A stretch of 64,000 nucleotides of DNA from an uncultured Chloroflexia bacterium. Lineage in GTDB: Bacteria; Chloroflexota; Anaerolineae; JAAYZQ01. Under the pieces are notes generated by a model. It was not told where the DNA came from, searched no databases, and was given only the letters and a program-made list of their open reading frames with translations. Shown one piece after another: positions 17,244-22,181 of this stretch. Each line of letters opens with the position of its first letter. The stretch's first letter is position 1. Made by a program: the position numbers and the translations under genes. The stretch is taken from NCBI GenBank assembly GCA_963783445.1, contig CAWANP010000018.1:17431-81430 (forward strand), in the 5' to 3' direction.

Positions 17244-18101
17244 CTATCCGGCGTAGCAATACAGACACTGGTGGCAGCGCCGCCACTGGCCGTACAGGCC
17301 CACGTCGAAATAGGCAGCGCAACCACAGCCGCGCCGGCTGCCCGTCGTCGGCGCCCGCCCCGGATCCCGGCCCGGAATCCGGCTAGATAGGGCGACGAAC
17401 CAGTCGTGGTCGCCACAGACCGCGGCCTGCAGACCTGGCACTTGCCCGACCAGCCCTGATGACTCGGCGCAAGCGGCCACGCTCAGCCCAAACTCACCCG
17501 CGGCCTCGACCAACCGGGCAGCGGTCTCCAGCCGCCATGCCTCGTCGTAGCCCGGCATTCCTTCGCCCCAACCCGGCAGCACCTCCGACAGACGGGCGTC
17601 TACCCGCTTGTAGCGGCCCGGTGCTGCGACAAAGTTCAGGACGCAACGCCTGATGCCCAGCGCTGCTGCCTGGTCGGCAAGACGCTGGAAGCGGTCCAGC
17701 CGGTATACTGTGGGGATGATGGGGTCAAACCGCCATTTGACGTGGTCCGGTCCGCCGGCCAACGCGCTCAGGTCAGCCACCCCGGCAAAAGGCTCAGCGG
17801 GTGCCAGGGGCTCCCAACTACTGCCGCCCAGGCCGGTAACCGTAACCTGGGTGGCCAGGGTTGTACCCTGGCTCATGAGCCGCCGCAAAAGGGGAGCCCC
17901 CCGTGCCAGGGTGCCGGCGATGTCCTTGGTCCAGAGTTGAAGGATCCAGGGCGCGCCATAGGCCCCGGTCACGGCGCGCAGGTTGTCCCAGACCCGCTCG
18001 ATGCGCGCCGGGTCGGTGCGCCGCGTCATGTCCAGGATCGTAGCCTCGCCCACCCGCTCCAGATAGCGAGGATAGTTTTCCAGCCGAAACACAAGGCTCA
18101 T
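17244..18101 (-). CDS. DUF1848-family protein (spore-photoproduct-lyase/radical-SAM-related)
   Basis: LWTKD, QVTVTG, WRFDPII, C-terminal R.GCGC...DVG.Y...CHQCLYCYA; ATG 18101 chosen over the ORF-track start. Confidence 0.75.
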   Translation of the reverse strand: MSLVFRLENYPRYLERVGEATILDMTRRTDPARIERVWDNLRAVTGAYGAPWILQLWTKDIAGTLARGAPLLRRLMSQGTTLATQVTVTGLGGSSWEPLAPAEPFAGVADLSALAGGPDHVKWRFDPIIPTVYRLDRFQRLADQAAALGIRRCVLNFVAAPGRYKRVDARLSEVLPGWGEGMPGYDEAWRLETAARLVEAAGEFGLSVAACAESSGLVGQVPGLQAAVCGDHDWFVALSSRIPGRDPGRAPTTGSRRGCGCAAYFDVGLYGQWRRCHQCLYCYAG

Positions 18102-18208
18102 GCTGCCAGACTCCGGACTTGTTGCCACCAGATGGAATCGTTGATCCCCTCGATTGTAGCACAGGCACGTTGCGCGCGCAAAGAAGGCAGTCAGATCCGG
18201 ACCCCATT

Positions 18209-18237
18209 TTGACATGGTCCTGCTTTCGGGCTATAAT
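18209..18237 (+). promoter_or_regulatory. Consensus sigma70 promoter for the ABC-F leader
   Basis: TTGACA (18209-18214)-17 nt-TATAAT (18232-18237). Confidence 0.85.
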
Positions 18238-18291
18238 GGTGTCCGTGCCCATATGTTGCATGGGGACGCAATTCCGACAGGAGGTGAGCCG

Positions 18292-18348
18292 GTGCGCGAC
18301 AACCGATCAAGCATGATCAGCGTCTGTAGTGCATCGTGTGATCGGTAA
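18292..18348 (+). CDS. Putative leader peptide (18 aa, MRDNRSSMISVCSASCDR)
   Basis: AGGAGGTG at 18279-18286, GTG 18292, TAA 18346-18348; lies between the promoter and a terminator upstream of ABC-F. Confidence 0.55.
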   Translation: MRDNRSSMISVCSASCDR

Positions 18349-18379
18349 GGTCCTTCTCACCGTTAGTACAAACCACCAG

Positions 18380-18411
18380 CCGTGGGTGCGCTCGACGCCC
18401 ACGGTTTTTTT
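18380..18411 (+). terminator. Intrinsic terminator (attenuator) inside the ABC-F 5' leader
   Basis: CCGTGGGTG-CGCTCGA-CGCCCACGG followed by T7. Confidence 0.8.
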
Positions 18412-18476
18412 GTTGGTCGCGGCATCCTGGCCAACTGTAGGTGGGCAGTATCCCGGCGGTAGTTGGGAGCGAAAAG

Positions 18477-20133
18477 ATGCTTCAAGTCCAGCAACCTATC
18501 CAAGACCTTCGGCGACCATTTGATCTTTGAACAAGTATCCTTCACCATCAACCCTGGGGAGCGGGTGGCGCTCGTCGGGCCCAACGGTTGCGGCAAGACG
18601 ACGCTGCTCAAGGTTATCCTGGGGGAGGTCCAGCCTGATGCTGGCAGTGCCAGGCTGTCACCCGCCAGCGCGCGGGTGGGCTACCTGGCCCAGGCGCTGG
18701 AATATGAGCCCGGCCAAACGGTGGGCCAAGTGATGGTGGGTGCTATCGATGGTCTGACCGGGGCTGAACAGCGGTTGGAGTCCCTCTACGCCGAGATGGC
18801 GATGGCAAAGGGTGACGCGCTGCAGCGCTTGCTGGTCGAGTATGAACAGTACCTCGCGAATTTTGAGCGTCTGGGTGGATACACCATCCAGGCTCGCATG
18901 GATGCCGTGCTCGATGGGCTGGACCTCCGTGGATTGGACCAGGACACCCCGGTGGAGATCCTCAGCGGTGGACAAAAGACGCGGCTGGGGCTGGCCCGGC
19001 TGCTGCTGTCCAGTCCTGACTTGCTGCTCCTCGACGAGCCGACCAACCATCTGGACATCGACGCGCTGGAGTGGCTGGAGGGCTTTCTACAGCGCTACGC
19101 GGGAGCCGTACTCATCGTCTCCCACGACCGGGCTTTTTTGGACCGCACCGTGGGCGCTATCCTGGAACTGGACCCACTCAAACACACCGTCACCGAGTAT
19201 CCCGGCAACTACAGTGCCTATGCCGGCGCTAAAGAGAGGGAGTTGGCTAAGCAATGGACTGCTTATAAGGACCAGCAGGCGTACATTGCCCATCTGGAGG
19301 GTACCATCGCCGCCCGGAAGGGCTACGCCCGGTCTATTGAGTTGGGGACCATCGATTTTGCCCCGCGCAAGATTGCCAAGGGCATTGCCCGCAAGGCCAC
19401 TGTCCAGCAGCGGCGCATACAGCGCCTCCTTGACTCGGAGGAGCGGATCGACAGGCCCCAGCGATCGTGGCAGATAAAACTCGAGTTCGCAGACACCCCG
19501 GCCAGCGGCCGCGACGTGCTCTATCTTGAAGGGCTGACCATGGGCTTTGGCCGCGAGCTTCTGTTTCGGGACGTGGATCTGACCCTGCGTGCGGGCGAGC
19601 GTATCGCCCTGGTGGGTCCTAACGGATCGGGCAAGACGACGCTGGCGCGCCTGATCCTGGGCGAGCTGGCGCCGGTGGCTGGCCGCGCACGCCTGGGAGC
19701 CGGCGTCAAGCTGGGCTACTATGCCCAGGAGCAGGAGGACCTGGACCCCGAAAGCACGCCCTACGAAGCAATCCGATCCGTGGCGCCCCTGAGCCAGACC
19801 GAAGTCCGGAGTTTCCTCCATTACTTTTTGTTCAGCGGCGATGAGGCCTTTGTACCGGTGGGCCACCTGAGCTTTGGCGAACGGGCGCGTCTGGTCCTGG
19901 CCCGGTTGGTTGCCCAGGGCTGCAACTTTCTCCTGCTCGATGAGCCGATCAACCACCTGGATATCCCTTCGCGTAGCCGCTTCGAACAGGCCATGACGGC
20001 CTTTCAGGGTACGGTGCTGGCCATCGTCCACGACCGGTACTTTATCGAGCGTTTTGCCACCAGCCTGTGGTCCATGGAAGGGCAGACTATCCGTCCCTAC
20101 GGGAGTCTGGAGGATATGCGAGGGGTGCGGTAG
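18477..20133 (+). CDS. ABC-F family ATPase (ribosome-associated, probable antibiotic-resistance type)
   Basis: Two NBDs (GPNGCGKTT/LSGGQ/LDEPTNHLD and GPNGSGKTT/LSFGE/LDEPINHLD), no TM segment, long charged linker. Start ATG 18477 gives MLQV-SNLSK after removing one extra C at ~18488. Confidence 0.9.
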
Positions 20134-20452
20134 CTCCGCCGGCTCGTCAGGCCCCGGGTGGAAGGGTATGGAATGCTTCCCGGTATTGGGGATTCCCACC
20201 GAAACCGTCAAGCAGAACGCCATTCATCTGTACTAGAAGCTAGGCGTCCATCATCGCTGCCAGGCAACGGCCCTGGCCCATACGTTGGGCATCCTGCCTG
20301 CTGATTGGCCGGCCATCCCCGTTCTTGCGCAGACCGTTGTCTTCCCGATTCTATAGGCTGCCATGCCATCTTCTCCAATCTCATTTCGCACTCCCTTTAC
20401 TCACTTAGAGCGAGCCGCGCCAACAACGAATTGCCTACCCGCGCCGCCACTC

Positions 20453-22181
20453 TCACGGGCTCTGCCGAAGCTCCTCAAGCTGCTTCTCCACACTCGTCTG
20501 GAAATCAGGATCGTCGCTCAGTTCCACGGCCCGCTCAAGGTCGGCAATGGCTTCTTCGATATACCCGTTCATCTTATACCTGCTTCCTCGGACGTAGTAG
20601 TTTGTGGGCTCGCTGGGAGCCAGCTCGACTGCCTTGTCATAGTCAGCAAAAGCGGCCTCCAAATTGCCTTGATAGTCATAGGCCAGACCCCGATAGATGT
20701 AAAATCGGCCAAAGCCGGGAGCCAATTCAATCGCCTGTGCATAATCGGCAATTGCCTTCTCCAGGTCGCCCAGACCTTCACGCGAGTGGCCCCGCTCGTA
20801 GTAGACCCAAGCCTTTTCTAAGCCATCATGGTAGAGACGGATAGCCTGGTCATAGTCATCGATAGCCCCGTCGAGGTCATCCAAATCCTGACGAGCGTTG
20901 CCTCTCCAGTGGTAGGGGTTCGCGTTATTGGAGTTCAGTTCGATAGCCTTGCCAAAGTCGACAATAGCTGCCTCCAGGTCACCCCGATCATACCAAACCA
21001 GCCCCCGATTGTTGTAGGCTATCCAGTTACTGGGATCGAGTTCAAGGGCCTGGTCAAGGGCATCCATGGCCGAGTCCAGGTCTCCCAGGTCGCGATGAGC
21101 CAAACCCAAATCACTCCACACCTGTGCTACCTGCGGACCATCCGGCGTAAGTTCGAGTGCCTTGTGATAGTCGCTCATGGCCGCCTCAGCGTTGCCGAGG
21201 CTGCGGTACAAAAGTCCTCGATTGTAGTAGGGCATCCACCAGCTGGCATCAAGCTCGATGGCCTGGGTGTAATCGGCAGCGGCTCCCTCCAAGTCACCTT
21301 GGTCCCGGCGAGCCAAGCCCCTGTGGTTGTAGGCGCAGACATTCTGAGGATCGAGAGCGAGGGCCTCGTTGTAGTCGGCGATGGCAGCTGCCAGGTCGCC
21401 CTGGCTGTAGCGAGCAAGCCCCCGGTTATTGTAGGCGGCGATATTCTGAGGTTCGAGCTCGATCGTCCTGTCATAGTCGGCAATGGCTCCCTCCAGGTCC
21501 CCCTGGTCTTGGCGAACCTTGCCTCGGTTGTTGTAGGCGGCGGCCAGCCGCGGGTCAAGCTCAATCGCCCTGTCATAGTTGGCAATGGCATCCTCCAGGT
21601 CACCCCGATCATACCAAACCAGCCCCCGATTGTTGTAGGCGGCGACATTCTGAGGATCGAGAGCGAGGGCCTCGTTGTAGTCGGCGACAGCAGCTGCCAG
21701 GTCGCCCTGGCTGTAGCGAGCAAACCCCCGGTTGTTGTAGGGTTCGGACAACCGCGGTTCGAGCTCGAATCGTCCTGTCATAGTCGGCAATGGCTCCCTC
21801 CAGGTCCCCCTGGTCTTGGCGAACCTTGCCTCGGTTGTTGTAGGCGGCGGCCAGCCGCGGGTCAAGCTCGATGGCCTGGTCGTATTCGGCGATGGCCGAC
21901 TCCAGGTCGCCTTCTCTTTCAAGCGCAAGACCTTTTTCCATGTGCGCCACTGCTTCCGCTTCAGGGTCAACCGTGGGATGTTGTGTTTTAGTCGGTACTG
22001 ATGTACTGGTAGGCCGTGGCGTGCGGGTAGGCTGTACTGTGCTAGTGGGTTGGGGCGTTTCGCTTGGGATCGCTTGTGCGACTTGCTCCGTGGGCGTAGC
22101 AACTGGGACGCCGCATCCGCCCAGGACTAGTGGCATCAGCATCATGCCTAGTATGTACTGGGAAACCTTCCAGGTTCTCAT
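20453..22181 (-). CDS. TPR-repeat lipoprotein, frameshift at ~21768
   Basis: AGGAGGAG RBS, signal with LVLGGC lipobox, Pro/Thr linker, more than 12 TPRs (AYNNRG...GDLEGAIADY..AIELDP). Confidence 0.85.

Follow-up and report, generated by a model that had tools for sequence, protein, structure and literature searches.

In Bacillus subtilis, the ABC-F gene vmlR is preceded by a leader with an experimentally demonstrated anti-antiterminator/antiterminator/terminator logic (PMC9226507). This leader comprises a three-codon upstream open reading frame (uORF; MIN), the anti-antiterminator stem-loop SL-1, an antiterminator, the terminator SL-3, and the stem-loop SL-4 that sequesters the Shine-Dalgarno (SD) sequence (PMC9226507). 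The bmrB-bmrCD leader of B. subtilis (PMC4191407) and the msrDL leader of msrD/mef (PMC10314930) also function by ribosome-mediated attenuation, through drug-dependent stalling on a leader peptide. Here, we analyzed a 64,000-nucleotide (nt) stretch of DNA, hereafter the window, from an uncultured Chloroflexia bacterium of the class Anaerolineae (assembly GCA_963783445.1, contig CAWANP010000018.1, positions 17,431 to 81,430 of the forward strand), in which a leader and an ABC-F gene occupy positions 18209 to 20133. With a probability of about 0.7, we read this region as a ribosome-dependent leader-peptide transcription attenuator controlling an ABC-F protein, whose inter-domain linker has the length seen in antibiotic resistance (ARE) ABC-F proteins. 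Antibiotic arrest of the leader ribosome would induce the gene, and its product would protect or rescue the ribosome. Comparative evidence from aligned homologous leaders supports that the attenuator itself is real. The leader has the following features.

18209-18237, + strand: sigma-70-type promoter, TTGACA (18209-18214), 17-nt spacer, TATAAT (18232-18237), agreeing with the consensus at 12 of 12 positions
18279-18286, + strand: SD of the uORF, AGGAGGTG, read directly from the sequence
18290-18301, + strand: 5′ strand of the predicted anti-antiterminator (P1), which includes the uORF start codon; in the minimum free energy (MFE) fold, 11 of its 12 positions are paired with 18325-18336
18292-18348, + strand: leader uORF, GTG start, 18 codons and a stop, peptide (V/M)RDNRSSMISVCSASCDR
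18325-18336, + strand: switch box TGTAGTGCATCG (RNA UGUAGUGCAUCG), uORF codons 12-15 (C-S-A-S), a conserved block in the MAFFT and covariance-model alignments
18378-18411, + strand: intrinsic terminator, stem 18380-18388 with 18396-18404, then seven T (18405-18411)
18385-18392, + strand: 3′ strand of the predicted antiterminator, GGTGCGCT (RNA GGUGCGCU), supplied by the terminator loop and the upper part of the 5′ arm, and forming 8 bp with 18328-18335
18451-18468, + strand: hairpin burying the ABC-F SD (UCCCGGC-GGUA-GUUGGGA), with an MFE of -33 kcal/mol for 18407-18495 (z -2.1)

The original prediction, made from the letters of the window, had described the consensus promoter, the 18-codon uORF with its SD, and a 9-bp GC hairpin followed by seven T; all three are found as described. 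The uORF is short and promoter-proximal, and the terminator sits between it and the ABC-F gene. The GC-rich terminator stem extends to 11 pairs when the flanking A-U and G-U are counted. The hairpin further downstream, whose CCCGGCGG...GGGAG sequences are kept in the orthologous leaders L001-L004, may provide a second, translational layer of control. An Rfam scan of 17900-20500 returned no family matching the leader, the top hit (E = 2.2) scoring far under its gathering threshold. A divergent DUF1848 open reading frame (17244-18215, - strand) seems to overlap the -35 box. As its Pfam match covers nothing before residue 92 (model position 51), the frame probably starts at the ATG near 18111, and an artefact of frame extension would explain the overlap.

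The layout resembles that of vmlR in several ways. An ABC-F gene is regulated, the anti-antiterminator contains a uORF that has its own SD, and the intrinsic terminator is followed by a hairpin sequestering the SD of the gene. As we propose, a ribosome stalled at or near initiation would free the antiterminator strand here too. However, the two leaders share no sequence homology. The uORFs of the present leaders have 14-34 codons instead of three, the switch strand belongs to the uORF coding sequence and precedes the stop by 3-4 codons, and the antiterminator pairs with the apex and loop of the terminator. Induction has been shown for vmlR, whereas it is a prediction for the present leader.

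We recovered 59 related loci, nearly all from metagenome-assembled genomes of Anaerolineae or other Chloroflexota. The same order of promoter, SD, uORF (15-28 codons), CCGUGG...CCACGG hairpin, and T-run precedes about 30 Anaerolineae orthologs of the ABC-F gene (50-91% protein identity). Promoters resembling TTGACA/TATAAT stand at the equivalent position of orthologous loci, and a GGAG-type SD lies 6-10 nt 5′ of the aligned start codon in nearly all 59 distinct leaders. The terminator is present in nearly all orthologous leaders, and its core CCGUGG...CCACGG is almost invariant.

The switch box is common to two helices, which are thus mutually exclusive. In the anti-antiterminator, the uORF start codon faces the CAU of the box. 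In the antiterminator (duplex energy of -11.9 kcal/mol in the window), the box pairs with the terminator apex, abolishing four of the nine terminator stem pairs and taking up the loop. The original prediction had proposed folding the leader for exactly such an antiterminator, and the pairing of box 18325-18336 with apex 18385-18392 provides it. Across the leaders, the terminator loop sequences vary in step with the box, as the following box and apex pairs illustrate.

Window leader: box AGUGCAUC, apex GGUGCGCU
Leader of the second ABC-F paralog: box AGUGCGUCC, apex GGGCGCACU
L082: box GUAGUGCGCC, apex GGCGCGCUAC
L078: box UGUGCAUCC, apex GGGUGCGCA
L075: box ACGCGCAUU, apex GGUGCGCGU
L007: box UUUGCAUCU, apex GGGUGCAAG

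Performing a duplex test of the terminator apex against the 70 nt upstream in the 59 distinct leaders, we find that the apex duplex is stronger than in dinucleotide-shuffled controls (mean z -0.90), reaching p ≤ 0.05 in 12 leaders against about 3 expected. The best partner of the apex is the homologous box, 27-49 nt 5′ of the terminator. A broad version of the test, setting the whole 3′ part of the uORF against the whole 5′ arm, gave no significance (z -0.1); the signal emerged only on restriction to the apex and with more leaders added. We also checked the pairing column by column in a MAFFT alignment built blind to it, with 1000 partner swaps and slid registers as controls. For the 11-pair antiterminator helix, 76.6% of the cells were canonical, compared with 69.6 ± 1.3% after swapping (0 of 1000 swaps reached the observed value) and 34-56% in slid registers. 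The helix showed 21 extra pair types, among them an exchange of A-U (13 rows) for G-C (10 rows) at box6:arm8. The anti-antiterminator, in a fixed register, had 60% of its cells paired, against 54.9 ± 1.3% when swapped (0 of 1000) and 25-45% when slid. Both helices thus covary across homologous leaders and overlap the translated region, which supports the uORF-dependent attenuation that the original prediction had assumed; the support is strong family-wide and weak for the window leader taken alone. A candidate mimicry of a tRNA T-loop or rRNA by the terminator loop of one subgroup was dropped, as the loop differs between groups and covaries with the box.

We propose the following mechanism. 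Transcription would start just 3′ of 18237, and the 18-codon uORF would be translated. With no ribosome on the uORF, the anti-antiterminator (18290-18301) would hold the box (18325-18336). An unimpeded ribosome would cover the box while elongating and then while terminating, the latter because the stop codon lies only 3-4 codons past the box. With the box held or covered, the terminator (18378-18411) would form, and transcription would end. If the ribosome instead stalled on the start codon or in one of roughly the first six codons, it would occupy the start region and leave the box free. As the upper 5′ arm of the terminator and its loop emerged, the free box would pair with them, allowing RNA polymerase to read through to the ABC-F gene, and the downstream SD-sequestering hairpin may contribute translational control. 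The arrest would be caused by ribosome-targeting antibiotics. Blockers of initiation or early elongation would fit best, making lincosamides, pleuromutilins, streptogramin A, and phenicols the candidate drugs.

The ABC-F gene has the following features.

18463-20133, + strand: ABC-F reading frame as assembled, 556 amino acids (aa) from TTG 18463, with two ABC_tran domains and an ABC_tran_Xtn linker
18465-18479, + strand: conserved ABC-F SD (GGGAG) and ATG 18477, placed by comparison with orthologs
18488-18489, + strand: extra, frame-breaking C (C18488 or C18489) after codon 4
19330-19389, + strand: 20-residue linker insertion RSIELGTIDFAPRKIAKGIA relative to Escherichia coli YheS, from residue-by-residue alignments

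The protein has the ABC-F architecture, with two ABC_tran domains, ABC_tran_Xtn, and no transmembrane domain. The original prediction had called its linker long, and this holds: the peptide AARKGYARSIELGTIDFAPRKIAKGIARK is present, and the span between the first H-loop and the second Walker A is 186 aa, compared with 184-195 aa in the solved extended-linker AREs (VmlR 187, VgaA-LC 189, VgaL 190, LsaA 193, and MsrE 193 aa). The shorter spans are those of EttA (158), YheS (162), YbiT (164), and PoxtA (170 aa); the window protein stands about 22-28 aa above EttA, YheS, and YbiT. The linkers of the ARE1-5 subfamilies are about 30 aa longer than that of EttA (Murina et al. 2019, PMC6723617), and the 186-aa span agrees with their length; the protein thus carries the extended inter-domain linker, or antibiotic resistance domain (ARD), of ARE1-5. 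The genome encodes only three ABC-F genes, among which the window gene has the longest linker. Its orthologs, taken as proteins of 48% identity or more, are present in ~28% of the high-quality genomes of the class (about 42 of 151) and in 0 of 4 other genomes of the same family, and a different ABC-F of about 640 aa is near-universal in the class. Patchy presence is one indicator of ARE status (Murina et al. 2019, PMC6723617).

The window protein resembles the ARE ABC-Fs (VmlR, VgaA, VgaL, LsaA, and MsrE; ARE1-5, PMC6723617) in having two ABC domains without a membrane domain, a linker span in their range, and a chromosomal gene with a predicted stall-sensing leader. It differs from them in sequence, being 24-36% identical to any named ARE and scoring far under every curated ARE cut-off, and in keeping the arm insertion of the first ABC domain. 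Identity to plasmid-borne named AREs is 24-33%, and it is about 36% to unnamed "ribosomal protection-like" ABC-Fs on Streptomyces plasmids. By full-length sequence, the nearest solved structures are YheS (292 bits), EttA (272 bits), and VmlR (269 bits). The retained arm insertion accounts for the full-length alignment with YheS and EttA; VmlR matches best when the comparison is confined to the stretch between the first H-loop and the second Walker A. None of the curated housekeeping models is passed (score/cut-off: EttA 365/599, Uup 344/900, YheS-type PRK10636 311/917, and YbiT-type PRK15064 303/762). The protein is therefore not grouped by them with EttA, Uup, or YbiT; such a grouping is what the original prediction had named as speaking against a resistance factor. 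Judged by its architecture, distribution, and company, the protein is probably an ABC-F of the resistance type.

We next asked which genes carry the leader. A covariance model was built from 28 leaders, with the terminator as the sole structure supplied, and its matches reached E-values down to 1e-15. The own genome of the window holds three full-length copies, namely the window leader, the leader of the second ABC-F paralog (outside the training set), and that of a major facilitator superfamily (MFS) gene on contig 20 (inside it). Matches were found in 104 of 401 sampled Anaerolineae genomes and in 79 of 216 genera; of 14 other genomes from the same family, 13 had a match. Two or three copies are present in many positive genomes. 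Classifying the genes downstream of 84 full-length matches gave the following.

ABC-2-type transporter genes (ATPase or permease first): about 31 of 84
ABC-F genes: about 20 of 84
Fused ABC exporters (ABC_membrane + ABC_tran): about 11 of 84
Gcn5-related N-acetyltransferases (GNAT), one with an Eis-like Acetyltransf_9 domain: about 7 of 84
MFS transporters: about 6 of 84
RIO-type (RIO-like) kinase: 1 of 84
Gene class not resolved: about 10 of 84

No biosynthetic gene was among those downstream of the 84 leaders. This repertoire is what ribosome-targeting drugs induce through leader peptides in Bacillus, as for vmlR and bmrCD (PMC9226507, PMC4191407). The similarity to bmrCD and msrD lies in the attenuated ABC exporter or ABC-F gene, fused ABC exporters being among the genes that carry the leader here too. 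Those leaders are mutually unrelated, whereas here members of one homologous family precede genes of several kinds in a single bacterial class.

The other two copies of the genome have features of their own. The copy on contig C20 (~864700-864905, - strand) has the uORF MFYDMIAQCIDPAAGDAGRRCRSAPKCP and a further CCGTGGGA...TCCCACGG hairpin able to terminate on both strands, and a 455-aa MFS transporter follows about 340 nt on. The leader of the second paralog (contig C12, ~286452-286578, - strand) retains the box and the complementary terminator apex and lacks an SD-preceded ATG at the aligned position. It has instead an ATG-TGA start-stop pair after GAGGA, as well as a frame of 14 codons that lacks an SD and closes with ...VGSSAS. 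Such a leader may act in a different mode or may be degenerating. Upstream of the ABC-F orthologs at four other loci (L024, L034, L016, and L026), short repeats in tandem separate the promoter or terminator from the ABC-F start. The units are ATTCGTT/ATTCGTA in L024 and GTAATCA/TTACCAA in L034, where the repeats replace the leader entirely.

Several observations speak against the reading of an antibiotic-induced resistance factor behind a working switch. In the window leader by itself, the antiterminator duplex is no better than in shuffled sequence (z -0.87), so the support for the antiterminator comes from the family and not from the window copy. Equilibrium folding with a ribosome footprint masked at each codon always gave the terminator a probability above 0.9. 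As the terminator dominates whatever part of the uORF is masked, the switch must be kinetic, and equilibrium folding is uninformative on a kinetic switch. In MFE folds of transcripts cut short ahead of the 3′ arm, the partner of the terminator 5′ arm varied from fold to fold. A subgroup of orthologs with DVGR-type leaders pairs a box-like segment differently; its antiterminator signal is weak, and an outer helix connects codons 4-6 to the region past the stop. The switch model may thus not be exact for every branch. The ABC-F protein belongs to no named ARE subfamily, failing the models (score/cut-off) of ABCF_producer (352/800), Sal (303/725), Vga (283/725), OptrA (277/1450), Msr (263/680), and Lsa (207/750). 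The only curated model that it passes is the generic NCBIfam "ribosomal protection-like ABC-F" NF000355 (434 bits against a cut-off of 380), which we rejected as evidence of resistance, since the second paralog passes it equally. In Anaerolinea thermophila, the sole Anaerolineae genome surveyed by Murina et al., the only ABC-F falls in the catch-all, unclassified "YdiF" bin (PMC6723617). Finally, the conserved ABC-F start is out of frame as assembled, and ATG 18477 opens a frame of only 17 codons. The ARE-type assignment of the original prediction is therefore borne out in linker length, patchy distribution, and a leader shared with efflux pumps and acetyltransferases, and not in membership of a named ARE subfamily.

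These points raise the question of whether the same RNA switch could serve an ABC-F that is a general translation factor rescuing stalled ribosomes. The leader would then be a homeostatic sensor of translation stress, such as intrinsic stalls, starvation, or ribosome defects. The failed ARE models, the full-length proximity to YheS and EttA, the YdiF assignment in A. thermophila, and the presence of only three ABC-F genes in the genome would all suit such a factor, and vmlR is induced drug-free by ribosome assembly defects (PMC9226507). However, a general factor is hard to reconcile with orthologs in only ~28% of the class genomes, where the widespread ABC-F is the different ~640-aa one, and with an ARE-length linker that is the longest of the three paralogs. 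The exporters, MFS pumps, and GNAT acetyltransferases behind the same leader type also do not fit such feedback. We consider a general translation factor unlikely, though a serious contender.

The out-of-frame start bears on whether the leader drives a functional protein at all. All orthologs start with MLQVSNLSK at an ATG with GGGAG upstream, and the equivalent ATG in the window is 18477. After codon 4, the window reads GTCCAGC (ATGCTTCAAGTCCAGC), where the 91%-identical relative L001 has GTTAGC (ATGCTTCAAGTT-AGC). This extra C is the sole frameshifting indel in 2.9 kb aligned to L001. The sole entry to the ABC-F frame as assembled is TTG 18463, which has no SD and is not conserved, being CTG in L001. 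Thus, of the complete leader ahead of an ABC-F start in the original prediction, the leader stands and the intact start does not. If the insertion were real, an intact leader would at present drive no functional ABC-F protein. The presence of the C in the assembly, its singularity against the closest relative, and the poor TTG start all agree with a pseudogene. Against it, the remaining frame is open across 556 codons with all motifs intact, and single-base frameshifts elsewhere in the assembly have the pattern of consensus error. The third ABC-F gene of the genome (contig C12, ~443600-446400, - strand, outside the window) contains at least six frameshifts, which spread its coding sequence over three frames. 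It represents the widespread ~640-aa type of the class, which has a C-terminal coiled coil. As its motifs are perfectly conserved and the adjoining coaE is intact, its frameshifts point to local consensus errors rather than decay. A tetratricopeptide repeat (TPR) gene 3 kb away (- strand, window 21760-21775, ~21768) has a one-base insertion, GAGCTCGAATCG against GAGCTCGA-TCG, which separates two otherwise near-identical repeat copies. Because of these other frameshifts, the extra C is probably an assembly error rather than the mark of a pseudogene, which we regard as rather improbable.

A further alternative is an RNA switch that binds a ligand or a protein, the apparent uORF of the leader being incidental and untranslated. 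In its favour, the box and terminator are conserved at the nucleotide level. One leader (L010) keeps the box nucleotides (GGGCAUCGCGUAUCC) in a different frame, its MTEI-initiated frame reading P-G-I-A-Y and not x-x-A-S. This frame difference could come either from an indel in that metagenome-assembled genome or from a constraint on the RNA rather than the peptide. However, the SD and start codon are essentially invariant (ATG in 58, GTG in 4, and TTG in 1 of the aligned hits), and in 52 of the 59 distinct leaders, no stop interrupts the uORF before the end of the box. The position of the box varies from codon 9 to codon 29, yet wherever the uORF reaches the box, it is always read in one frame, x-S-A-(S/P). 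The stop follows 3-4 codons past the box and 10-51 nt before the terminator arm. An untranslated uORF would leave this fixed frame and stop spacing, kept at variable upstream length, without explanation, and no Rfam family matches the leader; we hold this alternative to be very improbable.

The peptide encoded at the box is VCSAS ahead of ABC-F genes and CRSAP or GRSAP ahead of transporters. The conserved S-A-P/S may reflect a constraint on the peptide or on the RNA only. At the peptide level, C/G-R-S-A-P, which is like the RAGP and RAPP arrest motifs, may tune the dwell time of the ribosome on the box. Some distant orthologs from Ardenticatenales and other Chloroflexota (L036, L037, L046, and L033) have very short uORFs (MTDIL, MTNNL, MVSTL, and MIIS) and a different terminator; these uORFs resemble the 3-5 codon leaders of Firmicutes ARE genes.

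The window uORF contains 5 Ser and 2 Cys among its 18 codons, and the original prediction had taken this richness as a feature of the leader. It is not conserved: homologous uORFs read MTEIAPNVIVGQGASRII, MIELTRSDVGRGPSPCGAS, and similar, and the leaders instead share their start region, their x-S-A-(S/P) box, and the place of their stop codon. A trp/his-type attenuator reporting Ser or Cys supply, suggested by that composition alone, is accordingly rejected as scarcely credible, as the richness varies, the conserved Ser codon falls within the RNA box, and no biosynthetic gene lies downstream. The trp-type systems resemble the present leader in their 1:2, 2:3, 3:4 segment logic and in the masking of segment 2 by the terminating ribosome; they differ in that the leader here has no runs of regulatory codons and precedes resistance- or efflux-type genes.

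Returning to the antibiotic-inducible attenuator, the spread of the leader raises the possibility of an Anaerolineae "cis-regulon". One leader cassette would have been copied before ABC-F genes, ABC-2 and fused exporters, MFS, and GNAT/Eis-like genes, and early arrest on the uORFs would switch on the whole intrinsic resistome without a transcription factor. Three parts would make up the putative cassette, namely an SD, a uORF in which the x-S-A-(S/P) box precedes the stop by 3-4 codons, and a terminator of the CCGUGG...CCACGG kind, its apex complementary to the box. We put this forward tentatively, as an idea with somewhat less than even chances. In the actinobacterial WhiB7 regulon, uORF stalling induces an ABC-F, an MFS pump, and a GNAT/Eis-type acetyltransferase, one attenuator controlling a transcription factor that in turn controls the regulon. 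The functional repertoire here is similar, and the difference is that each target gene has its own copy of the attenuator. In the library searched, we found no paper tying Anaerolineae to leader-peptide attenuation, and a class-wide leader family serving several resistance-type gene classes appears to be undescribed.

The wider leader family is the more interesting result than the window copy. The known principles are unchanged, as vmlR, bmrCD, and msrD had already established them. If our reading is true, the roughly 60 covarying leaders would form a natural set for working out the rules of stall-sensing attenuation, namely where the ribosome stops and how the antiterminator strand is masked. 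The same reading would also predict that, beyond Firmicutes and Actinobacteria, there is a new lineage of regulated ABC-F proteins whose linker is of ARE length. Anaerolineae are abundant in soils, sediments, and digesters, and about a quarter of their genomes carry the leader; the covariance model would thus be a sequence-defined marker for inducible defence genes in a large, mostly uncultured class.

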